64,000 nt of DNA from contig CAVRKK010000001.1 of assembly GCA_963722385.1 (NCBI GenBank), forward strand, positions 32,001 to 96,000, written 5' to 3'. Source of the DNA: an uncultured bacterium (GTDB taxonomy: Bacteria > Babelota > Babeliae > Babelales > Babelaceae). Positions within the stretch are counted from its first letter, which is position 1. The number at the start of each line of letters is the position of its first letter. Below are positions 7,882 to 53,708 of this stretch, piece by piece. Below the pieces are notes generated by a model. It ran no database searches. It had not been told where the DNA came from and worked only from the letters and a program-made list of their open reading frames with translations. The translations under genes and the position numbers were made by a program.

Positions 7882-9072
7882 ATGCGCTTCTTATATGTTC
7901 TCGCTGGTTACTTTTTTATCATGGCGGGTATTGCTCAAGGCGTCGCAATGACGGTAGCGGCCCTTGAAAAGAACTTTTCTGATGGCCGTAAGCAAAAGGT
8001 ATATTTGATAGGGCATCGCCATCTGCGACCAGATAATTTGCCAGCAAACTTGCTTCACGAGGATGCGGCGTTGTTGGTAAAGGAGCAGACTGCTGTTATT
8101 ACCGAGTTCTTCGAGTTGATCAAAAAAGAAGCAACAGCATGCTTGCTTTTGGAAGCTACCCCGCTCGCTGACGAAGCCAAGCTCAATGAAATTCGCCTCC
8201 CCTCATTTTATGGCAAGTGTTTTTTCGAGGTTAACCCTGCTTGGTGTGAAAGAAATGTTGCCTCTTATATTGAGAACGAGATTTTTAGGCAAAGAGAAAT
8301 AAATAGCGTTCTCTATCTTGGGCAGGAAACGGAGGGTAATGAAGGGGTGATCATTGCTGAACCGAAAATATTTTTGGACGCAGCCCTTGAAGCGCTTTTT
8401 ATGTTGTATGAGCTTAAGAGCTTTACGCATGATAATCATATTGAGCGTTATCAAGCGGTGCGTGCCTCAAGTTTTACGCAATGTTCGCCCAATAAACTAA
8501 TTAAGACCGCGTTGGACTCGATTGGCCACATGACGACGGTGGTAAAGAGCGTTTGCGCGAAGCTGATTGATCACGAAAATCTGCAAAAAGCGCACGACTT
8601 TCTTGATTACCTTTCCCAACAGAAAAAGCTCTGGTTGAGCTTTAAAAAAGCTGCGGCCAAGTATCCGTATAAGTCAGTTGCTGACTTGGTGCTGGGCGAT
8701 ATTTTTGAGCAAAAAGGGTATCTCGCCGAAGTTGACATGGAAGAGCTTGTTAGTCAGATGGATTCAGTAAACCTCTTGCCCACCATGGATTATGCTGCTC
8801 TTGACGTAATTTTGGGTGAGCAAGCACCTTCAGTCGTTATTGCTAACGTTGGCGCGCTTCATGTTATAGATCTTGTTTGGCATCTTACGCGCGAAGGCTA
8901 TAGCGTCAATTATGGGGCGCAATTACGCTGTGGTGGTACAGTCCCGCTCACGCTTGAGAACTATAAGCAATGTTACGAGCAAGGCTTAGTGCGCCATCTC
9001 AGTGTCGAAGAGCTCAGATTGTTTCTGCGTGAGGCTCGGTCAGCGGGTTCGCCAGCGCATGATGAACTGTAA
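7882..9072 (+). CDS. Secreted hypothetical protein ending in HDEL
   Basis: GGAGG RBS, signal peptide, 396-aa ORF; GHRH, LLLE and VGALH motifs are loosely reminiscent of the TraB/Tiki-like fold. Confidence 0.75.
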   Translation: MRFLYVLAGYFFIMAGIAQGVAMTVAALEKNFSDGRKQKVYLIGHRHLRPDNLPANLLHEDAALLVKEQTAVITEFFELIKKEATACLLLEATPLADEAKLNEIRLPSFYGKCFFEVNPAWCERNVASYIENEIFRQREINSVLYLGQETEGNEGVIIAEPKIFLDAALEALFMLYELKSFTHDNHIERYQAVRASSFTQCSPNKLIKTALDSIGHMTTVVKSVCAKLIDHENLQKAHDFLDYLSQQKKLWLSFKKAAAKYPYKSVADLVLGDIFEQKGYLAEVDMEELVSQMDSVNLLPTMDYAALDVILGEQAPSVVIANVGALHVIDLVWHLTREGYSVNYGAQLRCGGTVPLTLENYKQCYEQGLVRHLSVEELRLFLREARSAGSPAHDEL

Positions 9073-9084
9073 CCAAGGGCTTAT

Positions 9085-9717
9085 TTATAACGAACTAAAG
9101 AATCCGAGCTGTTCAAGGGCTTGCCGAAGCTCGAACACTGGTAAGCCGCGGATTGCACTATACGAGCCACATACCGTTTGTACAAACATTTGACCAAGCC
9201 CTTCAACGGCAAGTGATCCTGATGCACCGAGAGCTCCTGACATATCGAGATAGCGATCAATCCATTTTTCTGGGACATCGCACCACGTTTCGCCTGAGAC
9301 GGTTCTTTGCACACGAGCGATTGTCTCCCAGCGGTCATTGACAGCCAGCTTTTTATCTAAGCAAAAGCTTGTGGTAGTTTGTGAGGCTCCTTGTGCTTTA
9401 GCACGTAGGAGCTCTTTGGCCTGTTCGCGGTCTTGCGGTTTGCCGTAAATAGTGCCATCAGGGCTTTGCGTCAAGGTATCAGCCGCAAGCACGTAGCACA
9501 TGGTTTCTTCAGAGGCAGGGGGTGGTAGCTGGGCGTGAGATACCTTTAAGCGCGCTAATTCTTCTACGCGTTCTTCAAGGGTCGGTAAGGTATCGCACAC
9601 GCTCTCATCAATACCGTGCTCGACGGCAAGAAAAGGAATCCCGACTTCTTGTAAAATTTTTTGGCGGGAAAAAGAGGCGGAGGCGAGATAAAGTATTGGT
9701 ATTGTAGCAATTTCCAT
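9085..9717 (-). CDS. maf: Maf family nucleoside triphosphate pyrophosphatase
   Basis: LYLASASFSRQKIL, LAADT, YGKP and GSYSAIRGLP motifs. Confidence 0.9.
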   Translation of the reverse strand: MEIATIPILYLASASFSRQKILQEVGIPFLAVEHGIDESVCDTLPTLEERVEELARLKVSHAQLPPPASEETMCYVLAADTLTQSPDGTIYGKPQDREQAKELLRAKAQGASQTTTSFCLDKKLAVNDRWETIARVQRTVSGETWCDVPEKWIDRYLDMSGALGASGSLAVEGLGQMFVQTVCGSYSAIRGLPVFELRQALEQLGFFSSL

Positions 9718-10661
9718 TAGTATTCTTCTTCTTCAAGATCGCTTTCTTGGCAGCTAAGGCTATCCTTTTTATTATCAATTTTATTATCAATAATAGGAGC
9801 TTTCTGGTTCTTTAGGCAGTCTGATATCAAGCTTTCAGCTCTTTCATTTTGATACATATGAGCCAATAATAAGGGCGTCTGGTTTGCTCTATTGCAAAGC
9901 TCGAGCGGGGCACCGTTTTCTAACAGAAGTTCGATAATACTAATATCTGCATCTTGCAGAATAGCCCAATGTAAAGGGGTATTGCGGTCTTTGTTAAAGT
10001 GCCATACCAGGTTCCGGTTTGTTCCCAGAATTTGCTTAACGAGATTTTGTATTTCTTCGATCATGCGAGTATATGCTTCGTTATCAATCGTTTCAGTATC
10101 CGGTTTTTTGGGAGCAGGCGATCTTGAGGCACTTGTCATGGCTATAAAATGGAAAAGAAACAAAAACATTGTTTCTTGATCGGCTAATTCAAGAGCGGTT
10201 TTACCTGCTTGATCACGGTCTTGTAGTGAAGCGCCATGAATTAATAAAATTTCTGTGATAATATTACTTGCTTGGGTTTTGATAGCCCAGTGCAATGGCG
10301 TGTCGCCCTCGCTATTTTCAGCAGCAATAAGAGCTGGCGAATGGGCGAGCAAATTTTCTACCGCCTCATCTTCATTCATGAATATTGCATTAAAAAAGAG
10401 CGTTATGAGCTCAGCGTGGTCGCTCTCTTCACAGACTTTTTTGGGTGGTCGCGGCTGGAAGTTATCATTTTGCTCAGTACTGGTTTCATTAAATAGCAGT
10501 TGTTTGCGAGCCCTTTTGTATGGGGTGGGGTATGTTTTGTAGGCTATCGCGTCTAGGTCGCTAAGATCAACCTTCTCGCTTTCGCTGTGTTCCATCCCAG
10601 CGAGATAAGTTGCCATGCTCATTGCTAATATGGACCATTTATAGCCTGTTTTTCGTAACAT
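9717..10661 (-). CDS. Secreted ankyrin-repeat protein
   Basis: GDTPLHWAI, GKTALELA, NTPLHWAI and QTPLLLA repeats; signal peptide; acidic tail. Confidence 0.9.
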   Translation of the reverse strand: MLRKTGYKWSILAMSMATYLAGMEHSESEKVDLSDLDAIAYKTYPTPYKRARKQLLFNETSTEQNDNFQPRPPKKVCEESDHAELITLFFNAIFMNEDEAVENLLAHSPALIAAENSEGDTPLHWAIKTQASNIITEILLIHGASLQDRDQAGKTALELADQETMFLFLFHFIAMTSASRSPAPKKPDTETIDNEAYTRMIEEIQNLVKQILGTNRNLVWHFNKDRNTPLHWAILQDADISIIELLLENGAPLELCNRANQTPLLLAHMYQNERAESLISDCLKNQKAPIIDNKIDNKKDSLSCQESDLEEEEY

Positions 10662-10841
10662 ATCGCCCCTTTTTGAAAAATGATACAGGGGAAGATCATA
10701 CTGCGATTTTTGAGCACTTGCAACTTTTCTTTTTAATTCTCATAAAAATATTTTTTATACAATTACTTTATATTAGCAATATATTGATATCAAAAAGTGA
10801 GGTTACAGGAGTGCTCTATAACCTCATCAATTTCAGAGAAA

Positions 10842-11507
10842 TTAGTCTTCTTTTTCAGGAGCGAGGTTTTGCCATAAGCGCGTAATGTCTTCGTCGCTTG
10901 TTACAGCCTCTAGGCAGGTTTTAAGATGCGCAATTAACTCATTATCCAAACTTATATCGTGGTTAGGAAGATCTTTTAAAGTGTCCTTGATTATATTAAG
11001 GAGATTTTGGAGACCTTCATTGGTTAAGTGTTCAATATTATAGTCAATAATTTGATCTGTAACCGTGCTTGCCATGCAAGCTACTGGTATTAGCAAAAGC
11101 TGTCCTATTGACGCGGCGAACCCGGCAAATAGAATACCTCCACAGTATGTGGAACATTCAGCGTTAGCTTCACGTGGCCACCAAGCATTGAGCATTCCAC
11201 AATACCAATGGGTAACTTCTGCCAAAAATTTAAGAGCTTCACGCACTTCCTTACCTGCTCCATTGGTTCTTAAAAGTTGAGCAACAAGATGTGCTGCCTT
11301 TACCGTATCAACTTTAAAAAATGGACTCTTACGTTCTTTAATCGTAGCACCCAAAGCTTGCTTCAGGTCGGCCAAAATTATCCACGCTGGAGCTCCCTCT
11401 TGAGCATTTGAAACATGTGTTGTTCGCGGGTCGTCCATTGTGTGCAGGCGAGAGCTGCCAAAATAGCCAGACATAACAAGCGCAAGTGATAAAAGTACTT
11501 TAAGCAT
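10842..11507 (-). CDS. Secreted hypothetical protein with a central hydrophobic segment
   Basis: ATG at 11507 after AAAGGAG; signal peptide followed by MDDP. Confidence 0.7.
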   Translation of the reverse strand: MLKVLLSLALVMSGYFGSSRLHTMDDPRTTHVSNAQEGAPAWIILADLKQALGATIKERKSPFFKVDTVKAAHLVAQLLRTNGAGKEVREALKFLAEVTHWYCGMLNAWWPREANAECSTYCGGILFAGFAASIGQLLLIPVACMASTVTDQIIDYNIEHLTNEGLQNLLNIIKDTLKDLPNHDISLDNELIAHLKTCLEAVTSDEDITRLWQNLAPEKED

Positions 11508-11630
11508 GATTGCTCCTTTTGGTAAAATATAAATCACTTTAAGTTAAGCACTTTTCTCTAAAAAATCAATTTTAAAATGAAGAGTAAGTTGAGTTAAAAA
11601 CCATTTTTTTTACCCTGTATCCAAAGGAAT

Positions 11631-11829
11631 GGCCTATGCGGCCAGCAGAAGGGTGCTAGCGTGACCTACGCTAATCGCCTTCTTTCGAAGGCTGCTCCGG
11701 ACAAAACATGCGTTACTTCGCATGTTTTGTCTTTCACCCCACACCACGGTTCCTTGGTCCCTCCAAACGGCCCCAACTCGGTCGCTTCGCATCCTAGATG
11801 CTCGAGCTTCCTCAAACAGGGAGGCCTCA
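11631..11829. repeat. GC-rich multi-hairpin dispersed repeat, copy A
   Basis: Several perfect hairpins, e.g. gacaaaacatgcg-ttactt-cgcatgttttgtc; shares ordered blocks with 26081..26223. Confidence 0.65.
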
Positions 11830-12089
11830 GCCGACTCCGCCATAGTGGCATCTAACAATCGACCTGATGTAATGAAGCTACGACGGCCGGATCAGAGTTG
11901 TTTATTAAAATGGAGATTTTTAACCTTATTTTGTTAATTTCACAATTCGCTCAATGAAAGATTGGTCCATAAATTGCTGATTGTTGAGCTGGATGGTTCG
12001 AGTTATATGAGAAAGATTTAGGTGTTCCCTTGTGTTATAATATATATCTTATAGTTTTAGATGGGTAAAAATCTGATAACAAAAAAGAG

Positions 12090-13319
12090 ATGATGAAAAT
12101 AGGTTCGATTAAAGATCCAAGGGTTGTCCGTGCTCGACAATTAACGACTTCGCAAGGTCGCCGCGCAGCTCAGCAATTTTTGTTAGAGGGCAAGGAACAA
12201 TTGAGCTGGGGATTAGAAGCGCGACTGAGCATTGAAGGTGTCTTTATTTATGAAAGGGCCCAAGAGGATGTTTTGATAAAAGATTTGGAGCGCCTTAAGA
12301 TTCCGTACAATGTTGTATCAGAGGGCATATTGAAAAAGATTACAGATACTTCTTATTTGGTGCCTATTGTTGGTGTCGCCAAAAACCCTGACATTGCCGA
12401 TGTGCACAAAGATTTTGTTATAGTATTAGACAATCTTATAGACCAGGGCAATATTGGGACCATTGTGCGCTCTGCTCATGCATTTGGCATAGATATGCTT
12501 ATAAGCACGCGTGAGAATGCTGATTTTTTTTATAAAAAGATTATTGATGCATCACGTGGTACGATTTTTAGGACACATCTCAAAAAATTTGATACTCCGG
12601 GCGATACGATACGTTACTTAAAAAATGAAGGCTATTTTGTTATTGCGACGAGTCCCCACGCACATCAGCTGCAATCTATGGTAAACTTGGCAGCTAAGCC
12701 TGTTGCATTAGTGCTTGGCAATGAAACTAATGGTTGCTCGCAGGAATTTATTCAACATGCCGATCTCTTAGTGCAAATACCCATGAAGTCAGATGTCGAG
12801 TCGCTTAATGTAGCTGTTGCGGCCGGCATCAGTATATATGAACTCAAGATAAAATTGGTTATAGCAATGCTTATTCAAAAAATTTATAAAAATCTTGGTC
12901 GTCAGTTTGGCGTTACCGTTAAGTTGATCCAGCAAGCCTTTGACGTGGAGTTAAAGAAGGTTACCAGTTTGTCTGCTCTGCAGGTGATTTTGCTTATGAT
13001 AGCAAAATGTGATCGTTTTATGTCGATTGATCAAGTAATGAAAGATATTGGGGAACATGGCGAGGGATTAGGTAATTTTCTTGCTCCATTGCGGGCAAAT
13101 GAGTATATAAATGATATAACCCAAGATGGCGTGTCTGGTATAGTATTAACGAAGCGTGGGGAAGAGCTTATAGCAAAACTGTGGCCTGTCGTTGAGGCAA
13201 CTGAAGAAAGAATATTAGATAATTTTTCGCCTCAAGACAGAGCCCAGCTTATCAAGTATATTACTCAAATTCATGATAATTGTTATAAAATAATAGCGGA
13301 TAATGCGAGTCACGCGTAG
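12090..13319 (+). CDS. TrmH/SpoU-family RNA 2'-O-methyltransferase fused to a MarR-like winged-helix domain
   Basis: DQGNIGTIVRSA, LVLGNETNG and IPM...ESLNVAVAAGI SPOUT motifs; C-terminal ~150 aa with LSALQ..IL, LTKRG and FSPQDRAQL MarR-like features. Confidence 0.85.
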   Translation: MMKIGSIKDPRVVRARQLTTSQGRRAAQQFLLEGKEQLSWGLEARLSIEGVFIYERAQEDVLIKDLERLKIPYNVVSEGILKKITDTSYLVPIVGVAKNPDIADVHKDFVIVLDNLIDQGNIGTIVRSAHAFGIDMLISTRENADFFYKKIIDASRGTIFRTHLKKFDTPGDTIRYLKNEGYFVIATSPHAHQLQSMVNLAAKPVALVLGNETNGCSQEFIQHADLLVQIPMKSDVESLNVAVAAGISIYELKIKLVIAMLIQKIYKNLGRQFGVTVKLIQQAFDVELKKVTSLSALQVILLMIAKCDRFMSIDQVMKDIGEHGEGLGNFLAPLRANEYINDITQDGVSGIVLTKRGEELIAKLWPVVEATEERILDNFSPQDRAQLIKYITQIHDNCYKIIADNASHA

Positions 13320-13331
13320 TAATAATTTTTT

Positions 13332-14537
13332 TTAAATGATAACAAATGCCGCGCAAACTGGACGCTCATGTCTTTCTTTTTCTTTTTGAGTAATGAGTTT
13401 TTCATGGCTGGTTGTGCCACAGGGGCTATTCATAATTTTTCTTTGTACATAGAGTGTGCTGCATCCTCCGCCGCCCATGTTGAGTGCGTATGTGCATCCT
13501 TGCTCGAGCATAAAATCTGCAAGCTGTGGTAATGCTAGGCCGCTACTATAGCCGGGCTGTCGTCCATCTACCACGACAAAAAGCCATTTGCCATCTGGCA
13601 AAATACCGACAGCTGAGCGTGGATGATCTTCGAAAATGAGCCATTTGCGCTCAGTTGCGTGCGAAAAATCAGCTCCGATTTCATCAGCGCAATGAGTAAT
13701 AGGCTTGTCCAGCTGAAAATCTTCCTCGAAATCATGCAGACAACTATTGTTACGTATAAGCAGGCCAGCGCCGCTCGCCGTAAAATCCATAGACGATATA
13801 TTAATATCCTGTTTGTTTTGTTTTAGTGTGATGCTGTGCTGGTAACTCACGTGCATCCCTTTCTTGAGTCGGCGCTCCAGAGGGCAGTCTTTACCGATCG
13901 AATACACAAAGCCTTTTTGCGGTATATGCGCGTTTCCTTTATCTACCAAAACATCAATAATGCGATTACGGGAAACAACAACTTCGTAGCCACGATTTCG
14001 TGTGCGCGTCGAGGAGCCAAAAGCAGGCGTATAAATGACAGCTTCAGCATCATCGCGTGGTTGATTAACTCTATCAACGTGGTAAGTATGGCCTCCAATT
14101 GATAATGTATGATGAGAATGTAGTGGGCCGTATAATGGCTTAGTCTCATTTTCTTTCCAACAAATCGCTGATCGCGAAATACCCGGATCAGCAAAGAGCT
14201 TATGTCGAATCTTCAAGAAATCGACGGCATTACCATTAAATGTGCCACCACGCCGATAATTATTGCAATTCATGCCTGCAATGCCACCGATGCGATCAAC
14301 AATGGAAGAAACAGGTTCGCGTGAACAACCGTCGCCCAGGGCATGCTCTAAGATAATACGTCTTTTGGCAGGATCTATCGTAAGCATGTAAATAACATGC
14401 AAGGTAGGATTACTCCGTATAATCGTTGTTAAGGTGAGGCCTGGAGCAATCTCTCGCGAGTATTTCGTACAATGGAGCCCATATGAGCAAAAAAATAGGC
14501 CAATTAAGATTTTAGCTATAACGAAATTTTTGAACAT
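13332..14537 (-). CDS. Exported phosphodiester glycosidase (NAGPA/DUF2233) family protein
   Basis: HPRSAVG, VVVDGRQPGYSSG and ALNMGGGGCSTL (canonical NLDGGGS is varied). Confidence 0.85.
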   Translation of the reverse strand: MFKNFVIAKILIGLFFCSYGLHCTKYSREIAPGLTLTTIIRSNPTLHVIYMLTIDPAKRRIILEHALGDGCSREPVSSIVDRIGGIAGMNCNNYRRGGTFNGNAVDFLKIRHKLFADPGISRSAICWKENETKPLYGPLHSHHTLSIGGHTYHVDRVNQPRDDAEAVIYTPAFGSSTRTRNRGYEVVVSRNRIIDVLVDKGNAHIPQKGFVYSIGKDCPLERRLKKGMHVSYQHSITLKQNKQDINISSMDFTASGAGLLIRNNSCLHDFEEDFQLDKPITHCADEIGADFSHATERKWLIFEDHPRSAVGILPDGKWLFVVVDGRQPGYSSGLALPQLADFMLEQGCTYALNMGGGGCSTLYVQRKIMNSPCGTTSHEKLITQKEKERHERPVCAAFVII

Positions 14538-14659
14538 GTTGCTATCGATACTTTAGCTAACAATTTTGGTAATATGGGAGCACCTAGATAATGTTAACAA
14601 ACCCGAGCGAAAAGTTAATAAGGTTTTAAATATCGGTCAATGTTGGTTGCGCTGCAATC

Positions 14660-25777: not shown

Positions 25778-25999
25778 ATGAAGCAATACTTATTAGTTTT
25801 AATGTTCGCGCTTATTTTTAGCCAGGGGTGTGTTGCTATGCACGTGCATGGACCTCGAGTACATAAAGTATGTGACTCACATAATTTAGGGGAACCGTGC
25901 GAACTTTCGCCTACTAAAACTGGTCGCTGTAAACCTTTAACGGTAGAAACAGTGAGAGGCGAGCGAGCGGTTGTTGCGGGGTGCGTACTTTCTAAGTGA
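25778..25999 (+). CDS. Small secreted Cys-rich protein
   Basis: Signal peptide; C..GEPC..TGRC..C pattern. Confidence 0.65.
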   Translation: MKQYLLVLMFALIFSQGCVAMHVHGPRVHKVCDSHNLGEPCELSPTKTGRCKPLTVETVRGERAVVAGCVLSK

Positions 26000-28013: not shown

Positions 28014-29276
28014 CTATTGAAGTGATTTATCATGTGGCTGCTCATATGCCTGTTGGTATAAAAATGGTATATTTTGAAAACTGAGGCGAATTGCGCCCTC
28101 CTGGTTTTGAGCTGTCCTTTGGTCGTTTGAGAGCAGGCCGGCAATAGATCCATAACCATTTTGACGAGCATAATCAAGTGGAGTGAAACCAAGAGTGTCG
28201 CGAATTTGGGGATTGGTTAGCGGATGGCTGAGTAAGGCTGCTACCATACCAACATTGTTGCGTAAAGTAGCGAGATGGAGCGCGGTATAGCCGGCTGTAT
28301 TCTGAACATTGGTGTTAATTCGATAGTCCCATAAAAGCAACCAAGTTAATTCAAGGTTATTCATGGTTGCTAAACGGTGCAAAGCAGTAGTTCCGCGATG
28401 GTCTTGAGCATTGGGATCTGTTTGATGGTCATTAAGCAGTATTTTTACCTTTTGAATATCATTGTTTAATACAGCGAAGTGTAGGGGTAAAAGCATGCTT
28501 TTTATAAAATATTCATGCTCTAATTGGGAAATTTTATCGTCGATTGGATCTTTGGTTAAATCTATAATGGGCGGTTGTTGTACGCCTGAGTCTTCTGTGC
28601 CGATATGCTCTAATGCTTCTGCAACGCTAGCAGTCTGGCAAAGTTCCAGCGGTCTGGGCGATAGGTTGTTCAAATTCTGGCTGCCGGGTGCTTTTCTCGG
28701 GCGAAATGACTTGGCACCGAGGCGGTAGAGCTGTCTAACGGCATCTCTGTTGTTAGCATCAGATGCAATCGCTAAAGGAGACATTTGGTCATTATTTAAG
28801 CTATTGAGAGCACTAATTGTTGTTCCTGAAATCAGCTTTTGTACGCTCAATATTTTTATGACCCCTGCTCGGTTATGTGGTGCCGCTAGATGAAGGGGGG
28901 TATTGCCATAGTTATCCCTTGCTAGAAGCATTTTTACGTGTTTATCATTGTTGTGCAAAAAGCGCTCAATGAGCTCAGCATTACCCTCTATTGCCAAATA
29001 ATGAAGTAACGTACGGCCCTGAATATCTCTTTGTTCCTGAAAATTATACCCGAGCGATAGCAACGTCGTTAAATAAGGGATGCCTTCACGGATAATGTCA
29101 TGAGCCAATTCTTCGAACAAAAAAATTTGGCTAGGTTCTTGTTCGGTATCATCTAATATTTCAATTATGTTATTCTGATCAGGGTTCCAAGAATCGGGTT
29201 TTTCCATGCCCAACAAATATGAGGGGAAGGAGCAAAAAAAGAGGGTGAGGCCGAAGTAATAGGTACCGAATTTCAT
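28014..29276 (-). CDS. Secreted ankyrin-repeat protein
   Basis: GRTLLHY, GNTPLHLAA, GTTALH, GYTALHLA and GFTPLDYA repeats; signal peptide followed by MEKP. Confidence 0.92.
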   Translation of the reverse strand: MKFGTYYFGLTLFFCSFPSYLLGMEKPDSWNPDQNNIIEILDDTEQEPSQIFLFEELAHDIIREGIPYLTTLLSLGYNFQEQRDIQGRTLLHYLAIEGNAELIERFLHNNDKHVKMLLARDNYGNTPLHLAAPHNRAGVIKILSVQKLISGTTISALNSLNNDQMSPLAIASDANNRDAVRQLYRLGAKSFRPRKAPGSQNLNNLSPRPLELCQTASVAEALEHIGTEDSGVQQPPIIDLTKDPIDDKISQLEHEYFIKSMLLPLHFAVLNNDIQKVKILLNDHQTDPNAQDHRGTTALHRLATMNNLELTWLLLWDYRINTNVQNTAGYTALHLATLRNNVGMVAALLSHPLTNPQIRDTLGFTPLDYARQNGYGSIAGLLSNDQRTAQNQEGAIRLSFQNIPFLYQQAYEQPHDKSLQ

Positions 29277-39237: not shown

Positions 39238-40272
39238 ATGAAACAATTAAATTATGTACTTTATGCTCTTATGTATATAGGTGCCTTAATAATGTTGGTG
39301 CCGGCGAAAGCGGCAATCGATTGCGGCAGCAAGCCAAAGGTCACGCTTAAAAATTCTTTGGCGGAGATAGACAAGGCCTATCGGGAATTCATACTTACCT
39401 GTCACCCCGATAAGCGCCCTCACGTGGAGAGTAAAAGAGCGCAAGCTGAATATATAAGTGGCGTCGAAGCTTATGATTCGTTAAAAAGCATGAAGAAAGA
39501 AGAAGAGACCGGGTTTAAGGGTACCAAGCCAGAGGCTAAACCGGAACATAAGCCGAAACCTAAAGACAAAGACAAGGAAGAAGAAAAAAAGAAAACCTGG
39601 GAAAAATTTAAGAATATACTCAACGAGAAAGCGCTTTTTGATGCGATTAGCGAGGGCGATCTAGAGAAAGTGACTTCTTTGCTTGAGTCTGGAGTTTCAC
39701 CAGATACGATCTACGCCAGTCAACCAATGCTTGCAGTTGCTATTAGAAAGAAACAGCTGCTTATAATAAAGCTCTTGCTCAAACATGGTGCTGACGTTAA
39801 CATAGAAGACTTAGGCGTTCCGATGTTAATTAGAGCTATCGACTCAAATAGCCCAATTATAGTTAAGCTTCTGCTTGAGAAGGGCGCCGATGCAAATGCT
39901 CAATATATCATTAAGCCCGCCTTAACTCTTGCAATTGATAAAGGCAACCTTGATATCGTGAGGCTGTTGCTTGAGCATGGAGCTAACCCTAATGAAAAGT
40001 ACCTCTATACAACGGCCCCCCTCCATACAGCGGCTAAAAATAACAATATAGATCTCGCTTCTTTATTGCTTAAGCATGGTGCTGAGGTAGATATAACAGA
40101 TAATTTAGGGAAAACACCCCTCATGTATGCGGCTACAAATAATAACGAACAGATGATAAAGCTCTTGATAGCTCATGGAGCAGATGTATGTCTCAAGGAC
40201 TTCATGAACCAAAGAGCTTATAATCTGAGCTCTTTGCCGAAACTAAAGAAATTGCTTGTTTGCTTGAGATAG
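39238..40272 (+). CDS. Secreted J-domain plus ankyrin-repeat protein
   Basis: Signal peptide; EIDKAYREFILTCHPDK with intact HPD; about six LL.HGA-type ankyrin repeats. Confidence 0.88.
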   Translation: MKQLNYVLYALMYIGALIMLVPAKAAIDCGSKPKVTLKNSLAEIDKAYREFILTCHPDKRPHVESKRAQAEYISGVEAYDSLKSMKKEEETGFKGTKPEAKPEHKPKPKDKDKEEEKKKTWEKFKNILNEKALFDAISEGDLEKVTSLLESGVSPDTIYASQPMLAVAIRKKQLLIIKLLLKHGADVNIEDLGVPMLIRAIDSNSPIIVKLLLEKGADANAQYIIKPALTLAIDKGNLDIVRLLLEHGANPNEKYLYTTAPLHTAAKNNNIDLASLLLKHGAEVDITDNLGKTPLMYAATNNNEQMIKLLIAHGADVCLKDFMNQRAYNLSSLPKLKKLLVCLR

Positions 40273-45696: not shown

Positions 45697-46724
45697 TCAC
45701 ATAAGCAGGCAATGGCTTTTTTTTGCTCCATGGTCTTTCAAGAGTTTTTGAATTTTAACGAGACGCTCAATTTTTTCTTTAGAAAGTTTCTTGGCGGGGC
45801 TATTGAGCTTTTTTTCTAAATACGCTAGCGGTGTTCCTCTTTCGCTAGGCCGATTGACGTCAGAGCCGTAACGAATTAACAATTCGACTAACGTATCATC
45901 GCCCTCTGCAATAGCTTTTTCCATTAATGTTAAACCTTTAGTGGTCGGGGCATCTGGTTGAGCACCATTTTGTAAAAGCAATTCGACCATTTCATAATTA
46001 ATAATTATTTCGCACTCGTCATAGCACCTTCTAACAATGTCTACTTTTGCGAGGACTATCTCTATTTTGTGACATTTGCTTATTAAGTACATTACCATTT
46101 CTCTATCGGCATTTGAGCCTCTTGCAGCGTTCGCCAGGCATTGTGGTGTGACTTCTACGTTATACTCTTCAACTATTACCTTTACCATGGCAATATGGCC
46201 AGCTAAAAGAGCAGAACTAAGACAATTATCAAGAGCAGAACCAAAACGATCATCTAAATCACTTACTATTGCTCCATGCTTAGTAAGTTCCCTCAATATT
46301 TCTATATTGCCTCTTTTTCCTACTAGCCGGATATCATGCCGGCTTACTTGAGCACCAAGCGCAAGAAGCTTACGCACCATTTTGAGGTACCTCCCTTTAT
46401 TGCCATTTCCAAAAGAGATGTTTTTTCTTCTTTATTGGTGTCGACATAGACGTGCAACATTTGTGACCCGCCGATATAGAGCTTTTTTTGAAGTATATTT
46501 ATATTGAAAGTTTTATCGACGGTATATCCGCTATTCATAAGCTCTTCGATCTGTTGATCAACCGTTATTTCTTCTAAAGTAGGAACTTGAACTTGTGGAG
46601 AAGTCCGGTGGGCCCACGGATTTTCCATAGCTATTGTCAGATTACTTATGCTAAGCAAGCTCAGCAAGCTGCCGATGTGGCACCACAGCTGACTTTTTTT
46701 ATGAAAAAATTGATTGGTAGCCAT
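45697..46724 (-). pseudogene. Secreted ankyrin-repeat protein with C-terminal CaaX (CLLM), split by one frameshift near 46385
   Basis: ORFs 46344..46724 and 45697..46380 join as LLEMAIKGG(Y)LKMVRKLLALGA if one base is added. Confidence 0.75.
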
Positions 46725-47001
46725 GTTTTTTCCTCATAATCGTGCAATGCCTTAAGTGCTTTCAATTTATCACGAAAGGCATTTCCTGACAAACGCTCTT
46801 AGGGCGCAGTTAACAGGCGAGCAGATACGATTAATCAATTCAAGTGCAAAAGAGCGTTGTGTCGCTCATGCTAAAGAAATAAAAGAACAAGCATGCAGTT
46901 CAGCCACACGAAGCTTTATTTTTGTGGCTATTTTACGAGCATTAGTTTATTCTCAGGCCAATGGTATTCCGTCGACTTTCATCACTAAACGATAGGTCAT
47001 T

Positions 47002-47673
47002 ATGTTCAAAAGGATCATTGGTGGCGTATTATTCTGCGCAATGTTTGTAAGTTGTATAATGTTGCCTGATAATGCTCGATGCGCAGCAAGCCTTGCTGGA
47101 TCATTGGCCAACGGAGATGGTGGCATATTGCTCAGAATGCTCAAGCAGGCGTGTTCTCGCGATTGGAAGGAGTGCATTCCGCTCCTTGATCCAACATCAT
47201 CTGTTAACGATATTATGGCAATGCATGGAATTAATGAATACGTAGCGATACAATGTGGGGAGCTTTCGTGCATTTCGTCCAACATTTTCAGGACATTGGG
47301 CAAGCCTTTTCTCTGGGGTTGTGATAAAGAGGGCAAGCCATTTATTGCTGTTATCTATGACGTGTATACGCTTGGTGGGTCGGTTGTTGCCAGAGGCGTG
47401 ATTCAGACATTCGTTCAAGCGCAAGCGGATAAACCGGGCATATGGATATCTCGGGCTCATCGTGGACGCGAGAAATTTATTCGGCATATGCACGCTCTCT
47501 GTGATGATGCAGCGCAGGAAGAAGAGGTTAATTTTAATGAGTTTCAAACACTGGCCAAGCTTATGCTTGATGGCGAAGTTGTTGTCAAGCATCAAAAAAC
47601 TGGCTTTGTGAAGCTTGCTTTTGTTTCTTTGTGGAATGATATACGTCTATTTAATGCGAGTTATAAGTCTTAA
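47002..47673 (+). CDS. Secreted hypothetical protein
   Basis: Signal peptide; 223-aa ORF. Confidence 0.65.
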   Translation: MFKRIIGGVLFCAMFVSCIMLPDNARCAASLAGSLANGDGGILLRMLKQACSRDWKECIPLLDPTSSVNDIMAMHGINEYVAIQCGELSCISSNIFRTLGKPFLWGCDKEGKPFIAVIYDVYTLGGSVVARGVIQTFVQAQADKPGIWISRAHRGREKFIRHMHALCDDAAQEEEVNFNEFQTLAKLMLDGEVVVKHQKTGFVKLAFVSLWNDIRLFNASYKS

Positions 47674-48226
47674 GCTTGCTGCTTTTCGTGAGCAGCGGTT
47701 CAGCCCAAGAAACCAAAGTAGTACTGCAAAGCTCAACCTTTAGGTTCGGGTAGATCACAAAAAGTATGCCAATAACTATATGACATAATTGCTCGCCGCA
47801 CGAGTCGGATAACAAAGCTGTCAGATTAATAACTGTTTGCCTGTGAAATCAAAGAAGGTTAGAGCAGTGCTAGAAAGACGCTGCTCTACACGTAATTGTT
47901 TATTGGTGGTGAGTTTTTGATCCATGGAGCGGATTGAGCAGGAGGGACAAGGGCAGGGCAATCACATCAGGTGAAAGGCGTTGTAGCTGTGTAGCGCGTT
48001 GGTTAAGATTGAAGTCGAGAGCATGCGACTTTCCTGATGAGCTTATACTGGTTATAGCAGTAAGCAGGTCATGTAATGTCTCCTTCTCTTGTTCAGAAAG
48101 ATGAGGAAGACATCAACATTGCCGACAAGTGCAGCGCGGGCAAGGCCCTGCAGGAAGGCTAACAATCAAAACACTTGTGTAATTTTGCAATTTAATCTAA
48201 TATTTACACAAACTAGGGGAGGAGTT

Positions 48227-48568
48227 ATGTTTACTCGAGATCTATCGGCAAAGTTAAAATACTTTTCTTCTAAGTTGCCTGTGGTAGCTATTTTAGGGCC
48301 GCGGCAATCAGGAAAGACAACTTTAGCTCAAATGACGTTTCCGGATCATCATTATATTAGTCTTGAAGATATCGATCAGCGTCTTTTTGCTACGAGTGAT
48401 CCACGGCGATTCTTGAGAGAAAATGAAAATGAACACGGTCTTATTCTTGATGAAATTCAGCATGCACCGGACTTGCTCTCTTACATTACACCTCAAGAAA
48501 TTTGCGCACATCAAGATTCGTTAACGGGGCAATGCGTAAAGGCTTATATAGCAGCCAATCAGCCTTAA
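48227..48568 (+). pseudogene. 5' fragment of an AAA+/DUF4143 ATPase
   Basis: MFTRDLS..GPRQSGKTT..ILDEIQHAPDLLSYI, after which homology ends. Confidence 0.85.
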
Positions 48569-48810
48569 CAACTATATACGCTGAACTCATAAAAGTCAGA
48601 GTGCTTACAGGGCTTGCTAGAGTATAAAAATCTTTTTCATAGAGTTTCTTGACTAAAAACTTCATATCTGAAATTTAATATAATTATCATTAAAAAAAGC
48701 AAGGGTTTTGTCCTCATAGGCAATGCTGCTTGCCAAAAAAGAGCTTGTAAAATGAATACTCATAGAGTCATACTTTAAAAGTGCTTTGATACAAAAGAAA
48801 AGGCTTGAAC

Positions 48811-50328
48811 ATGAAAATAAGGCTTTATCAAATTATTGCTCTTATGGTATGGTCATTAACGCATTTTAGAGCTGAAGCGCTTACGATGACACTCGAAAAT
48901 GGCGCTCCTGTTGGTGATAACGAAAATTCTCAGACGGCAGGTCCTGGGGGCCCTATCTTATTGCAAGATGTTCATCTTTTGCAAAAGTTTCAGAAATTCG
49001 ATAGAGAAAGAATACCTGAGCGTGTTGTTCACGCTCGCGGCATTGGGGCTTTTGGTGAGTTTGTCTCCGCAGGGAATGCTTCGGATATAACAAGTGCAAG
49101 TCTTTTTGCTCGTGCTGGCAAAGTTACATCTGTTTTTGTTCGTTTTTCTGTTGTTACGCATCCAAAAGCTTCACCTGAGACATTGCGTGACCCACGTGGA
49201 TTTGCTACAAAATTTTATACTGATCAAGGTAACTGGAACCTCGTTTGTAATAACTTGCCTGTCTTTTTTGTTCGAGACCCTTTAAAATTTCCCGACGTTG
49301 TACACGCATTTAAGCCGTCTCCTGTTACTAATGTACAAGACCCTAATCGTATCTTTGACCTTCTAAGTTATTACCCAGAGAGTACCTTTATGATGACGCT
49401 TGTATTCTCAGATCTTGGTATACCAGCATCATATCGCAGGATGGATGGGCATAGCGTCAATGCATACAAATTTGTCACTGCAAAAGGCAAAGTTTGTTAC
49501 GTCAAGTTTCACTGGAAAAGTTGCCAAGGAATAAAAAACCTTACGAGTGAGCAAGCACAAGAAGTACAAGGCAAAGATTTTAATAATCTTACTAATGATC
49601 TGTACGCTGCTATCAAGAGCCATGAATACCCACAATGGGACCTGTATGTTCAGGTACTGGATCCTGCAGACTTTGACAAGTTTACTTTTGACCCTCTTGA
49701 TGCTACCAAAATATGGCCCGGTATTCCCGAGCGCAAGCTAGGAACGATGACGCTAAACCGGATACCCCATAATTTTTTTCAAACAACGGAACAGTCGGCA
49801 TTTCCCGTTTCTGATCTTGTGCCGGGTATAGAACCATCAGAGGATAAAATTTTGCAAGCGCGCTTATTTTCTATGCAAGACTCTCAATTTCATCGCTTAG
49901 GTGCCAACTTTCACCAGATTCCTATTAACCGTCCGCATGTGCGAGTACTTAATTATGACCAAGATGGGCAAGGGGACCAAAGTAAGCGGCAGAACGAAGT
50001 TAATTATGAGCCATCAGTAAGTATGTGTACCTATAAACCAAATGCACGCTATCGCGCTGTTGAAACACCTCGGGGCACAAGGATTGCTAAAGCTAACGAT
50101 TTCGAGCAGGCAGGCATGTTTTACCGTTCATTAGATAAGGCAGGACAAGACCGCCTTATTGCAAACTTGGGTGGAGCACTGAAGGAGGTTAAAAATAATA
50201 ACGTAAAGCAAACTATTTTGAGCTATTGTTATAAAGCAGATGCTGATTATGGGTCTCGCCTTACTTTGCTGGTGGGTGGAGATAGTGCTGATATTAAAAA
50301 TCGTGCAAGTAAGCTTTCATCAGAATGA
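48811..50328 (+). CDS. Exported small-subunit monofunctional catalase (proximal Tyr position reads Met)
   Basis: FDRERIPERVVHARG, VRFS, RDPRGFATKFYT and PSEDKILQARLFSMQD motifs; signal peptide. Confidence 0.9.
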   Translation: MKIRLYQIIALMVWSLTHFRAEALTMTLENGAPVGDNENSQTAGPGGPILLQDVHLLQKFQKFDRERIPERVVHARGIGAFGEFVSAGNASDITSASLFARAGKVTSVFVRFSVVTHPKASPETLRDPRGFATKFYTDQGNWNLVCNNLPVFFVRDPLKFPDVVHAFKPSPVTNVQDPNRIFDLLSYYPESTFMMTLVFSDLGIPASYRRMDGHSVNAYKFVTAKGKVCYVKFHWKSCQGIKNLTSEQAQEVQGKDFNNLTNDLYAAIKSHEYPQWDLYVQVLDPADFDKFTFDPLDATKIWPGIPERKLGTMTLNRIPHNFFQTTEQSAFPVSDLVPGIEPSEDKILQARLFSMQDSQFHRLGANFHQIPINRPHVRVLNYDQDGQGDQSKRQNEVNYEPSVSMCTYKPNARYRAVETPRGTRIAKANDFEQAGMFYRSLDKAGQDRLIANLGGALKEVKNNNVKQTILSYCYKADADYGSRLTLLVGGDSADIKNRASKLSSE

Positions 50329-50533
50329 GCTAAAGAAGGATGCCTTTCTTGGTATTCTTCTGAGCAGTAATATATTTAATTACTCCGCTCTCCTAAAATA
50401 CCGTCTTATTGCCACCAAGGAATCTCTCCTTCATAAATTTCTTCGAAGGCTAGCGCATTTTAGATTTCTTTTATCTGATCTCACTGATATACTGATGATA
50501 AAATATGATATAATTTAATTTTTGGTGAAGATT

Positions 50534-52093
50534 ATGAAGTTTTTTGTGTTTACTTGTGTTTTGTCTGTGCTATTAGGCTGTTCTTGTTTTTCATGGACCA
50601 TGACCGACATACCAGGGAAGGAGAAAGAAAAAGAGCATGAGCATGAGTCCTCCGAAGAAAGCAAGCAGAAACCTGCTTGGAGCAAAGAGGTCCAATCTCA
50701 ACTCTTTCATGCTTTGATCAGTGATAATGTTCTCGATCGGATTAAAGAAGATATTCGCAACAACGGTGAAGACCCGTTCTCCACGCTTCTTGCGGTCTTA
50801 GAAAAAACCAAAGTTGATTTAGAAGCAGCGCGAGAAGCGTTAGAAAATGGGGCCAATCCAAGCTCATGGGAAAAACTTAATTTCGGGCTATTTGCAGAAG
50901 ACGACATCTTACCAGAACCTCTTTGGATAGCAAGCGAAATAGGAAATAAGGATCTCGCTCAACTCCTCCTTACGTATGGTGCCAATCCTAATGCTCCCTC
51001 CGCAATGAGTCTTGAACCACTTTCAAATTCTATAAGCCAGGGTTTTTTTGACTTCGCACAACTCCTGCTTGGAAGCGGTGCACATACCATACCAAGCCAA
51101 GCATTTGAAGCCTTATCCATTTTCTCCCCAAGACAGACTCGACCAAAACTCGACTTTTTCAAATTATTGGTAACTTACGGTCTTAACCTAAATAACAGTG
51201 ATGCTATAGAGATCCTTTCAAGCTCTTTAAGTGATGGTATTTCCACCAGAAATTCGCTTCTTCGCGGGGAACAAAATCCCGAGACCATAAATTGGCTCCG
51301 AAATTATTTAAACCCCTCTCAAATCGCCCATCTTACCAGAGAAAAAAGCAATGAAGAAAAGGCTCAAATTTCAAATGAGCATTCACAGCAAATATCTTTG
51401 GCCATATCGCTTATTCTGTTTGGGGCTTATAGAAATAGTCGATTAAATCCTAGTTTCCGTGAACTTGCTAAGAACATAGGGCTACCTGAATCATCGCCCT
51501 TTTATCTGATACCTCTAGGCCAGATCGAACCAGTAATGAGGCGCCTTGAAGAACTAACTTCAGCGGAGCCTTTGGCTGAACAAAGATCAAAGGAAACAAT
51601 CAGCTACTTCACGGAAGTATTTACACTTGCAGCTGCTTACAGCATTGAACCTATTATCGAATTTATCATCAAAAACAACGCATATTCTGCAGAAACAATC
51701 ATCTTAGCTTTTAATACAGCCACAGCTATCGGCGACTTGCCCATTCTTAAAATTTTGAGATTTTACATTCCTCATGATGCGTTGTGGCAACTTATCAATA
51801 ATAATTTGCAGATCGCTGCTACTCAGTTACATATAGATATTGTTCAGTATTTTCTTCTGCTTGCCAATGAGCTTGGCAAACGAATTGATATAATATCGGT
51901 AAATAACTTCATCAGCAATCTCCTTCGTGATCAATTACTCGAGCCCAATATAAGAAGTATTTATCTACATATTCAATCGCTTTTATGGGATTACGTTCTC
52001 AATCAAACCCGAAGACAAAGTTACTTAGGCCAAATAATGCCCGAAACCCTTCATCACATTCGTAGTTTTGTGGTACATGGTCAAAAACCTTAG
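50534..52093 (+). CDS. Secreted ankyrin-like protein with an F-box-like C-terminus (paralog 1)
   Basis: PLWIASEIGNKDLAQLLLTYGANPN; C-terminal YLGQIMPETLHHIRSFV. Confidence 0.8.
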   Translation: MKFFVFTCVLSVLLGCSCFSWTMTDIPGKEKEKEHEHESSEESKQKPAWSKEVQSQLFHALISDNVLDRIKEDIRNNGEDPFSTLLAVLEKTKVDLEAAREALENGANPSSWEKLNFGLFAEDDILPEPLWIASEIGNKDLAQLLLTYGANPNAPSAMSLEPLSNSISQGFFDFAQLLLGSGAHTIPSQAFEALSIFSPRQTRPKLDFFKLLVTYGLNLNNSDAIEILSSSLSDGISTRNSLLRGEQNPETINWLRNYLNPSQIAHLTREKSNEEKAQISNEHSQQISLAISLILFGAYRNSRLNPSFRELAKNIGLPESSPFYLIPLGQIEPVMRRLEELTSAEPLAEQRSKETISYFTEVFTLAAAYSIEPIIEFIIKNNAYSAETIILAFNTATAIGDLPILKILRFYIPHDALWQLINNNLQIAATQLHIDIVQYFLLLANELGKRIDIISVNNFISNLLRDQLLEPNIRSIYLHIQSLLWDYVLNQTRRQSYLGQIMPETLHHIRSFVVHGQKP

Positions 52094-52235
52094 CGAGGCT
52101 GAGGACTGATTCATTTTTCTCTTATTGAGGTTATTAAGTGCTCATTTTCGCCAGAATTTACCTCATCCTTGACTTAACTTGACTTAAATCGAAGATTTGC
52201 ATATTATAAATACTATAATTTAATTTTTAGAACTC

Positions 52236-53708
52236 ATGAAGAATATTAATTTAAATTGCATCATGCTTGCTTTGCTCGGGTGTTCCGTTTTCACCTGGAC
52301 TATGGATAATGGATCGATCGAAGAAAAAGAGCACGAGAATGAAACATCTGCTCCGGAATCGCCGTCTGAGGAAAGCAAACTAAAGCCAGCAGGGAACAAA
52401 GAAGCCCAAATTCAGCTTTTTCACGCCTTGGTCAGTGACGATACATCGAAAGAGCTTAAAGAAATTCTTCTCAACGACAGCTCATTCTCCCATAGTCTGG
52501 CAAGATTTGCCGATATCTTATTGCAACACAATCATATTGACTTAGAGGCGACCCTCATCGCCTTAAAAAACCGCGCGGATCCGAACGATTGGGAAGAATC
52601 AGACGTTAGGCCTTATATGCCTAGTCCATTATGGATGGCAACTGAATCAGGAAATCACAAGCTCGCTCAACTCTTACTTGCTTACGGAGCTGATCCCAAC
52701 AGAGGGTCTTTGCTCTATGGATCCCCACTTAGAACAGCTATGACTCATGGATATATTGAAATTATTGAATTGCTTCTCGAATCTGGCGCAGACATTAAAA
52801 TCGAGCGCGTACTTAGCCAATTAATGTCATCTAAAGGCCTTGTCTTTCTCCGATTATTCGTAAATTATGGCCTGAACCTTAATAATCATGAAATCGTGAA
52901 AGAAGTTTCGTCTTGTTTAGAAAGCTATCTTTGCTTTCCTTATACTTCACTTTTCGCACATCATAGCCAAATTACTCAAGAAAGTTTAAAACAGCGAAAG
53001 CAAGTAGAGAAAATATTCATATCATTTATCTTTTCTGGTGCTTACAAAGATGAAGTATTACATCCTATTTTTCGTAAAATCGCCGAAAAAATAGGGATGC
53101 GAGAATCCTCATTTCTTTATCAAATCCCTTTAGGTATGACTGAGCCTGTATTAAAACGTCTGCAAAAATTAATTTCAACCGACCCAACATCACAAGAAAT
53201 TTCTAGACTTGTTAATAATGCTTTTGCTCTTGCAGCTGCGTATGACCTTGAACAAATCATTAAATTCCTTATCGACCATAACGCGGTCTCTGAAAATGCC
53301 TTAATCGAAGCTTTTAACGCTGCTACCACTATCGGTAACCTGTCGATATTAAAAACACTTAGACCACTTATTTCTAATACGCTTTTATTGAAACTCACCA
53401 AAAAATATTTGCGAATTGCTGCAGTTCAGCTCCATAGCGATATCGTTCAGTATTTTCTTAAGCTTACTAACGAGATATCCGACAAACCATTCGATATAAT
53501 CCCTGTAAATAAATTCCTAACAAACTTACTGCGTAATAAATATCTAGACCCCAATAAAAAAACCATTTACCTATACATACAATCTCTTCTATGGAATTAT
53601 TTTCTTAATTATAACCCAACTCAACGTTACTTTGGTCAGCTAATGCCGGAATTACGGTATAATATCGGCAGATTTATAGTAAGCGGCCAGAAACCCTTAA
53701 GTCAATGA
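52236..53708 (+). CDS. Secreted ankyrin-like protein with an F-box-like C-terminus (paralog 2)
   Basis: Colinear with paralog 1; C-terminal YFGQLMPELRYNIGRFI. Confidence 0.8.
   Translation: MKNINLNCIMLALLGCSVFTWTMDNGSIEEKEHENETSAPESPSEESKLKPAGNKEAQIQLFHALVSDDTSKELKEILLNDSSFSHSLARFADILLQHNHIDLEATLIALKNRADPNDWEESDVRPYMPSPLWMATESGNHKLAQLLLAYGADPNRGSLLYGSPLRTAMTHGYIEIIELLLESGADIKIERVLSQLMSSKGLVFLRLFVNYGLNLNNHEIVKEVSSCLESYLCFPYTSLFAHHSQITQESLKQRKQVEKIFISFIFSGAYKDEVLHPIFRKIAEKIGMRESSFLYQIPLGMTEPVLKRLQKLISTDPTSQEISRLVNNAFALAAAYDLEQIIKFLIDHNAVSENALIEAFNAATTIGNLSILKTLRPLISNTLLLKLTKKYLRIAAVQLHSDIVQYFLKLTNEISDKPFDIIPVNKFLTNLLRNKYLDPNKKTIYLYIQSLLWNYFLNYNPTQRYFGQLMPELRYNIGRFIVSGQKPLSQ

Follow-up and report, generated by a model that had tools for sequence, protein, structure and literature searches.

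A Met-Glu Preference Directly behind Predicted Signal-Peptidase Sites of Ankyrin-Repeat and Orphan Proteins in Dependentiae

Introduction

Most substrates of signal peptidase I in Bacteroidetes carry Gln at position +1, which is cyclized to pyroglutamate, and this Q-rule (PMC5837995, PMC10653852) presumably acts via the chemical properties of the N-terminus that cleavage creates, or via its stability. In this work, we describe a comparable preference in the phylum Dependentiae, starting from a 64,000-nucleotide stretch of DNA (positions 32001-96000 of contig C1 of genome G000, which comprises 1.60 Mb in two contigs at approximately 43% G+C; in the following, the window): Ankyrin-repeat and orphan proteins bear a Met, mostly followed by Glu, directly behind a hydrophobic leader, at a boundary that we call the junction. 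Like the Q-rule, this is a lineage-specific preference for the +1 residue after a signal-peptidase I site that is visible in proteome statistics. The two differ in the residues concerned, which here are Met then Glu, often with Pro at +4, and in their breadth: the Q-rule spans most signal peptidase I substrates, whereas the Met-Glu preference is found in one cargo class, composed of ankyrin, leucine-rich repeat (LRR) and orphan proteins, and is missing from those exported enzymes that were annotated. We know of no partner enzyme that would serve a Met-Glu rule as glutaminyl cyclase serves the Q-rule.

Short motifs behind a signal peptide also characterize the PEXEL proteins of Plasmodium (RxLxE/Q/D), whose processed N-terminus ends xE/Q/D and is acetylated, and the RxLR proteins of oomycetes. 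The likeness is that a brief sequence signature close to the start of Sec-type secreted proteins tells host-directed effectors, here putative ones, from the rest of the secreted proteins. However, PEXEL and RxLR are located 15-30 residues behind the leader, involve a second protease and operate in eukaryotes with an endoplasmic reticulum, whereas the motif described here belongs to a diderm bacterium and directly adjoins the predicted signal-peptidase site, its role in export being putative. In lipoproteins, too, residues after the processed N-terminus decide on the compartment: According to the +2 rule of Lol avoidance and the lipoprotein export signal of Bacteroidetes, the residues that follow the Cys sort the protein. 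This type of sorting acts on lipidated Cys N-termini, whereas a lipobox-like motif is present in just 8 of 128 junction carriers in our data.

Dependentiae constitute a widespread phylum of protist parasites with up to at least 100 ankyrin proteins that carry Sec leaders, and the portions of the literature on the phylum drawn upon here recognize no type III or IV injection system. In one cultured member of the Dependentiae, 79 of 126 ankyrin proteins have leaders according to SignalP, and their secretion into the amoeba cytoplasm has been proposed (PMC4378268); for another cultured member, leaders on 44% of the coding sequences, a Sec system and possible vesicles have been reported (PMC6561590). 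These ankyrin proteins belong to the same class and the same phylum as those analyzed here and have led to the same inference, namely that Sec-exported proteins act on the host. The difference is that the residue following the leader is not mentioned in the portions of these two papers considered, and 'methionine' has no match in the main text of PMC4378268. A literature search found no description of a residue rule after the leader in Dependentiae; the N-terminal rule of effector-like secreted proteins reported below is real, strong and apparently undescribed.

Met-Glu Accumulates behind Hydrophobic Leaders

For the genome-wide analysis, 1341 genes covering approximately 83% of G000 were called with a home-made hexamer model, and their starts were chosen by Shine-Dalgarno (SD) sequence and codon. 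In the 1019 proteins of at least 140 residues, to which no signal-peptide rule was applied, the dipeptide Met-Glu occurs 86 times within residues 16-35, compared to 10-21 times (mean 16) in each of five later bins of 20 residues (Poisson P ~2e-34, a value inflated by paralogues). Hydrophobic N-termini are encoded by approximately 39% of the genes. Cleavage sites in these were set by home-made criteria for the -3/-1 residues, the h-region and the length, and not by a trained signal-peptide predictor. A crude leader rule gave 406 leaders; in 71 of them, the first acidic residue beyond the hydrophobic core has a Met before it, compared to 1.2% for Met before Asp or Glu in protein bodies. A looser rule, which demands a hydrophobic stretch and then Met-Glu, yields 87 proteins, about five of which are false (including NusB, the membrane anchor of LepB and two HTH proteins); the residue at -1 is small in 82 of the 87, and Pro occupies +4 in 47. 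A scorer that searched blindly for the best cleavage site from upstream residues only was dropped as noisy, with many of its 593 sites cutting inside h-regions; Met-Glu was still its top dipeptide (34 occurrences vs 15 for the next).

In approximately 90 proteins, two thirds of them ankyrin proteins, a site compatible with the rules for signal peptidase I is immediately followed by Met-Glu, and frequently by Met-Glu-x-Pro. The pattern that a preliminary description had noticed by inspecting the window is real, but it is a property of the entire genome and not peculiar to the window.

The Junction Is Constrained at Three Residues

The residue at -1 of the 71 hits is predominantly small (A21, G18, S13, T8, C4, P4; A/G/S/T/C in 64 of 71), and position -3 is occupied by L19, A15, V8, I7, S7 or T5 in 61 of them. 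Tyr is common at -2, Pro or Gly are frequent at -4 to -6, and the index of the Met is mostly 18-29. By our heuristic rules, the leaders have the Sec/signal peptidase I build with a basic n-region, an h-region, small residues at -1/-3 and a length of approximately 18-30 residues. Judged by sequence, the junction is of classical signal-peptidase I build, with Gly at -1 and Leu at -3 being commoner than expected for Gram-negative sites. The hydrophobic stretch precedes the junction and polar residues follow it, which is not the arrangement of a prepilin-type leader, where a short basic leader is cut at G|F/M, the hydrophobic stretch comes behind the cut and Glu occupies +5; one pseudopilin-like false hit was obtained in the related genome G005. 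G000 has one intact gene for signal peptidase I (LepB; TIGR02227, 107.7 bits) and encodes a SecD/SecF domain protein. A second, partial match to signal peptidase I contains an internal stop and is probably a pseudogene (Table 1).

To assess conservation, junction segments with more than 50% identity were removed, which left 111 of 128. The information content in this non-redundant set amounts to 1.41 bits at +2 (Glu in 59 of 111) and 0.92 bits at +4 (Pro in 37 of 111), compared to at most 0.41 bits at all other positions from +3 to +25, and no column beyond +5 is conserved. Met, Glu(+2) and Pro(+4) are hence the sole conserved positions in N-termini that otherwise cannot be aligned. Near the junction, the information at third codon positions amounts to 0.04-0.21 bits, and the ratio GAA:GAG at +2 is 37:25, matching the genome ratio of 0.57. 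Because there is almost no information in third codon positions, the constraint acts on the protein and not on the DNA; a DNA- or RNA-level motif was ruled out on the same grounds.

Further features of the carriers were observed beside the junction itself. The first 40 mature residues of the G000 carriers contain a fraction of 0.18 acidic (vs 0.11) and 0.13 basic residues (vs 0.10), and this stretch often includes clusters of Lys and Arg (such as PRKRAR or SKKRRH) that resemble nuclear localization signals; examples are C2_1196323, C2_1005117 and C1_265102. No common C-terminal signal was found in the last 70 residues of 82 carriers (52 clusters). At least 12 motif-bearing ankyrin proteins share a C-terminal segment of the approximate form L-P-P-E-L-x-x-x-I/L, with two clusters of six; examples are the window gene 52236 (last 60 residues), C2_1009269, C2_1005117, C2_897396 and C1_265102. 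The segment looks like an element of the F-box/PRANC type, for which Pfam gave no match even at E up to 1.

Carriers Are Mainly Ankyrin and Orphan Proteins

Ankyrin proteins were collected with a home-made hidden Markov model, which found 102 in G000; Pfam confirmed 13 of 14 that were checked at 1e-6. A junction Met is present in 66 of these proteins, another 18 have a different hydrophobic N-terminus and 18 have none, and many of the 36 proteins lacking the Met are fragmentary or were given a wrong start, with a leader|Met-Glu located just upstream of it. By the same loose rule, 62 of 622 non-ankyrin proteins with hydrophobic N-termini have a junction Met (Fisher P 4e-40, inflated by paralogy). 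The split that the preliminary description had drawn between ankyrin and orphan proteins on the one hand and exported enzymes on the other holds in the carrier and comparison sets of the genome. The second residue at the 66 ankyrin junctions is E54, Q4, D3 or N1, that is, one of these four in 62 cases.

Among the 87 Met-Glu carriers, 57 are ankyrin proteins. Pfam assigned no family to 19 of the 29 non-ankyrin carriers; the others comprise one WD40 propeller, one LHH nuclease, a weak RickCE-like match (1.5e-4), a nucleotidyl transferase, weak GNAT and ankyrin matches, and four false positives. For comparison, we assembled a set of 106 proteins from the same stretches of G000 that have a leader but not the motif. 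None of the 53 members of this set that could be assigned by Pfam is an ankyrin- or LRR-type protein. Instead, they include ten WD40/lactonase and three DUF5122 propellers, M16 and M23 peptidases, a sulfatase, an FGE protein, catalase, GT34, NAGPA, Skp/OmpH, solute-binding proteins, Fic, sulfotransferases, membrane proteins and a few cytoplasmic false positives. Not all eukaryote-like repeat proteins follow the rule: G000 has a large family of leader-bearing beta-propellers of the WD40/lactonase type, and a Met-Glu junction is found in only one of 11 examined.

The nucleotidyl transferase is of the mannose-1-phosphate guanylyltransferase type and has a leader|MEGE junction 58 residues before the domain (Table 1); such enzymes are normally cytoplasmic. 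In a subgroup of the ankyrin proteins with leaders, the junction reads G|Q and lacks the Met, for example in C2_1137592 (..ALG|QNL), C2_205145 (..CIG|QNG), C2_125021 (..AYG|QQL) and C2_984914 (..ING|QSL). Despite such cases Gln is not dominant at +1, where the enriched residue is Met, and the pattern is not that of the Q-rule.

The Preference Extends to Related Genomes

Samples of 100-400 kb from related genomes were processed with the same scripts, and leaders with Met before the first acidic residue were counted relative to all leaders having such a residue. Within the same family, the motif is found in G001, which belongs to the same genus (9/104), and in G003 (15/53), G004 (9/25), G005 (15/72), G006 (5/31), G008 (7/19) and G010 (9/37), whereas counts are low or zero in G012 (2/50), G002 (0/22), G007 (0/22) and G011 (0/14). 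In other families, we obtained 5/32 for G025, 3/31 for G021, 1/17 for G055, 2/53 for G016, 0/11 for G014 and 0/21 for G043. Because identical scripts give nothing in five of these genomes, the pipeline does not create the signal. When the second residue is ignored, the share of Met at candidate +1 positions is 8-30% in 12 of the 18 genomes, which belong to families f1, f10, f11 and f14, and 0-6% in the other six, compared to a background of 1.4-2.2% Met. The positive genomes range from 27% to 43% G+C. Glu is the commonest second residue in most of them, with a relaxed choice in G055 and G005 (E11, Q7, D4, S3 and others); M[DQN] is also enriched in G005.

The relatives contributed 99 non-ankyrin carriers, 72 of which were annotated. 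No family was assigned to 59 of these, and the rest comprise three LRR and three WD40/propeller proteins, a UCH deubiquitinase, AAA, collagen-repeat, NUDIX, GMC oxidoreductase and PPDK_N proteins and one Omp85/BamA. A second LepB paralogue acting as a dedicated peptidase was considered and ruled out: the motif-rich genomes G001, G005 and G010 have one match each, and the motif-poor G012 has two. Many ankyrin proteins of G003, G005 and G010 (e.g. L031-L040, L051-L060) contain an F-box-like L-P-x-E-[IL] 20-40 residues after leader|Met-Glu, so that the element is found near the N-terminus and not, as in G000, at the C-terminus.

Possible Function of the Junction and Alternative Explanations

The rule probably singles out proteins destined for the host cell. 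Specifically, we favor the tentative reading, with a probability of about 0.38, that the exposed Met-Glu N-terminus is an identity tag fitting its bearers to the host cell and not to the periplasm. According to this proposal, the single LepB would cut before the junction Met and the carriers would leave the bacterium. In the host cytosol, the Met would then be retained, since methionine aminopeptidase acts only if the second residue is small; the N-terminus would not be an Arg/N-degron and would resemble the NatB-type terminus of a host-made protein. In general, a Met before Glu, Asp, Gln or Asn is not removed by methionine aminopeptidase, is not a hydrophobic Met-degron and resembles an N-terminus of the NatB type, and in 62 of the 66 ankyrin junctions the second residue both blocks removal of the Met and is non-hydrophobic. 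The preliminary description had already drawn attention to NatB. This idea stands insofar as nearly all ankyrin junctions would expose Met followed by Glu, Gln, Asp or Asn, but Met-Glu alone is enriched in G000: Met-Asp (15), Met-Gln (17) and Met-Asn (11) remain at background in residues 16-35, which is the first of several points that weigh against our reading. NatB, moreover, acts mainly on nascent chains at the ribosome. Avoidance of degrons alone would be achieved just as well with Ala, Ser, Gly or Thr at +1, all of them usual at signal peptidase I sites, and therefore leaves the preference for Met, Glu and Pro unexplained. We infer cleavage, secretion and host localization of the carriers from their sequences, with heuristic cleavage sites, and the carriers with a lipobox-like motif upstream of the junction include the window genes 50534 and 52236. 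A housekeeping protein, the Omp85/BamA of G021, carries a junction Met. Finally, G000 and G001 share 20 reciprocal-best pairs in which one or both members bear a junction Met; both do so in only five by script and in two more by eye, several pairs at 38-51% identity having the Met on one side only; these pairs include non-leader, cytoplasmic false positives, and the orthologue test (samples G001, G003, G004 and G008) is noisy owing to the loose junction rule and unclear ankyrin orthology. Because the junction Met is lost in some reciprocal-best pairs, the rule is to be seen as a strong preference and not as invariant.

The free Met-Glu-x-Pro N-terminus might instead be read while still in the periplasm, by an outer-membrane route such as two secretins or vesicle loading, so that carriers are exported in a second step and resident proteins stay. 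The separation of cargo classes fits this scenario equally, and a specific motif with three positions (Met, Glu, Pro) agrees better with recognition by a binding site than with degron avoidance. In other systems, peptides at the N-terminus behind the leader guide export through the outer membrane or sorting to the surface, as exemplified by N22 of CsgA and by the sorting residues of lipoproteins. G000 contains two secretin genes; type II secretion parts with two gspD copies are described for all TM6 genomes (PMC4776705), and outer-membrane vesicles have been proposed as effector carriers in a cultured relative (PMC6561590). On the other hand, no candidate for the receptor was identified, the genome lacks a CsgG-type channel, the copy number of LepB does not track the motif, and the second residue is relaxed in some genera, e.g. 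in G005. Type II secretion is, to our knowledge, not known to read a linear N-terminal signal. Taken by itself, such a second export step seems rather unlikely to us, yet it stays close behind the host-side reading because the latter leaves both the choice of Met over Ala or Ser and the Pro at +4 unexplained. A purely historical origin is less plausible still: A leader may once have been joined to an ankyrin gene without one, directly at its start codon, and the resulting junction, devoid of a present function, would have spread by expansion of paralogues and their fragments. In line with this, 50 of the 71 carriers fall into one BLAST cluster via their ankyrin repeats, some 'orphans' are ankyrin fragments or duplicates (e.g. 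46344-46724 of the window, or C2_413378 vs C2_807238), and the Met has been lost in some orthologue pairs. However, the leaders and the next 20 residues have diverged past alignment, and yet Met, Glu(+2) and Pro(+4) stand out, although a neutral Met would decay together with its neighbors. Furthermore, Glu is the second residue in just 7.7% of leaderless proteins, non-ankyrin domains occur among the carriers of G000 and its relatives, the rule holds over the entire G+C range in four families, and most seemingly leaderless 'ME' ankyrin open reading frames (ORFs) prove to be fragments or to have a wrongly chosen start that lies downstream of a leader. All this makes an inherited junction without function unlikely.

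The junction Met could also be a translational start. The preliminary description had raised this as an alternative: the junction ATG would initiate in addition to the upstream one and give a cytoplasmic copy that lacks the leader and equals the processed protein. The Met is placed exactly where such a form would begin, initiation independent of an SD sequence is possible, and conservation of Met is inseparable from conservation of ATG because Met has a single codon. Nevertheless, an SD match of at least four bases precedes only 3 of 87 junction ATGs, compared to 75 of 87 annotated upstream starts and 9.6% of deep internal ATGs. The mean folding energy of the mRNA in 63-nucleotide segments is -11.7 kcal/mol at junction ATGs and hence similar to the controls (-11.8 kcal/mol at codon 24 of leaders without junction Met, -10.6 kcal/mol at deep ATGs), whereas it is -6.2 kcal/mol at annotated starts. 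In the context small|X-E-x-P (n = 56), X is Met in 45 cases and Ile, encoded by ATA or ATC, in three, and it is never encoded by GTG or TTG, which serve as start codons in 8% of the genes. These three observations disfavor a cytoplasmic isoform, and a start codon would leave the conservation of Glu and Pro unexplained; we thus regard an internal start as very unlikely. Closely related is the suspicion of chance or misannotation, according to which the upstream extension is untranslated T-rich DNA that merely reads as hydrophobic and the Met is the true start. The SD sequence is weak or missing at the upstream ATGs of 29276, 50534 and 52236, and both the gene caller and the leader rules are home-made. 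Against this stand the frequent SD matches and the open mRNA at upstream starts, the retention of the leader in the paralogues 50534 and 52236, the agreement of an outside gene call for 29276, and the five related genomes that give zero with the same pipeline. This explanation is close to refuted.

Returning to the host-side reading, one may extend it to an 'M-rule', in which signal peptidase I makes a Met-Glu-x-Pro N-terminus that serves as the address label of host-directed effectors, as a bacterial counterpart of PEXEL. We put this forward as a doubtful but testable extension. If true, the M-rule would provide the first case of a linear host-targeting signal coupled to the Sec pathway of a diderm bacterium, and the effector sets of a nearly uncultured phylum could be read from sequence alone. 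Independently of this, a three-residue rule that is kept across genera of very different base composition and mostly limited to eukaryote-like and orphan proteins offers a means to list candidate effectors based on sequence only. It would be the second example, after the Q-rule of Bacteroidetes, of lineage-specific selection on the residue exposed by signal peptidase I.

Genes of the Window

The features discussed are listed in Table 1; window genes are named by the position of their first base.

Table 1. Coordinates of junction-bearing genes and other features (plain numbers are positions in the window; C1 and C2 denote the contigs of G000, and L088, L093 and L095 denote other sequences).
Feature	Coordinates	Strand	Length (residues)	Leader and junction	Position of junction residue	Remarks
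10661, ankyrin-repeat gene	9717..10661	-	314	MLRKTGYKWSILAMSMATYLAG (..ATYLAG) then MEHS	Met 23, codon 10593-10595	Pfam Ank_2 9.3e-16
11507, orphan gene	10842..11507	-	221	..GYFGSSRLHT then MDDP	Met 24, codon 11436-11438	no Pfam family
29276, ankyrin-repeat gene	28014..29276	-	420	MKFGTYYFGLTLFFCSFPSYLLG (..SYLLG) then MEKP	Met 24, codon 29205-29207	Ank_2 4.4e-31
46724, ankyrin gene split by frameshift	45697..46724 (ORFs 46344-46724 and 45697-46380)	-		..LSISNLTIA then MENP	Met 33, codon 46626-46628	first ORF no Pfam family, second ORF Ank_2 1e-10; frames overlap 46344-46380
50534, ankyrin gene	50534..52093	+	519	MKFFVFTCVLSVLLGCSCFSWT (..CFSWT) then MTDI	Met 23, 50600-50602	lipobox-like LLGC upstream
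52236, ankyrin gene	52236..53708	+	490	MKNINLNCIMLALLGCSVFTWT (..VFTWT) then MDNG	Met 23, 52302-52304	lipobox-like LLGC upstream
7882, orphan gene	7882..9072	+	396	..IMAGIAQGVA then MTVAALEK		agagggagg before upstream ATG
25778, small Cys-rich ORF	25778..25999	+	73	MKQYLLVLMFALIFSQGCVA (..SQGCVA) then MHVH		
1796, orphan gene	1302..1796	-	164	MKSYFFLIISLLACSSYLHT (..YLHT) then IEKK		no Pfam family; lipobox-like LLAC upstream
Second ankyrin protein	39238-40272					no junction Met
Catalase	48811-50328	+		..HFRAEA then LTMT		no junction Met
LepB	C2:287492-288196					intact gene
Partial signal peptidase I match	C1:295563-295883	-				internal stop
Nucleotidyl transferase	C2:652928 (L095:101-1339)	+	413	leader then MEGE		
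Thioredoxin-reductase/thioredoxin fusion	L088:11789-13225					hydrophobic N-terminus
Thioredoxin-reductase/thioredoxin fusion	L093:15135-16580					hydrophobic N-terminus

All nine N-termini quoted in the preliminary description were recovered by translation at the coordinates it gave, and the five genes it had taken for ankyrin genes are such by Pfam, 46724 only via its frameshifted second half. It was also right that the catalase, NAGPA, propeller, GT34 and second ankyrin proteins of the window lack a junction Met. As for the cleavage sites it had proposed by eye, the hits throughout the genome obey the -3/-1 rule of signal peptidase I, but those of 1796, 50534 and 52236 may be lipoprotein sites, and the assignments for 7882 and 10661 are weakened. 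In the former three genes, the lipobox-like LLAC or LLGC lies 7-9 residues ahead of the junction, and the genome encodes both LspA and Lgt; for these reasons, cleavage before the Cys is possible. 7882 is a doubtful member because hydrophobic residues follow its Met (MTVAAL). The leader of 10661 is weakly hydrophobic, with an h-region under the threshold used in the genome-wide junction count.

Good SD sequences precede the upstream ATGs of 1796, 7882, 10661 (aaaaagggg), 11507 (aaaaggag) and 46724, and none precedes their junction ATGs. 11507 is among the 71 genome-wide hits as C1 43507. A third-party gene call for 29276 (P0001, protein database) begins at the same upstream Met; a homologue search with this protein returned mostly generic ankyrin proteins across all life. 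The paralogues 50534 and 52236 both keep their leader in frame. 1796 is a near-miss, in which the junction Ile is encoded by ATA; three other I-E-x-P junctions in the genome use ATA or ATC. The frameshift in 46724 is located near a run of A, and the part with leader|MENP stands alone as an 'orphan' of 126 residues. Other motif-bearing orphans may in some cases be fragments of ankyrin genes as well.

The catalase of the window has a hydrophobic leader ending in ..HFRAEA, and two thioredoxin-reductase/thioredoxin fusions elsewhere also have hydrophobic N-termini (Table 1); redox enzymes seem to be exported or membrane-anchored in this genome.

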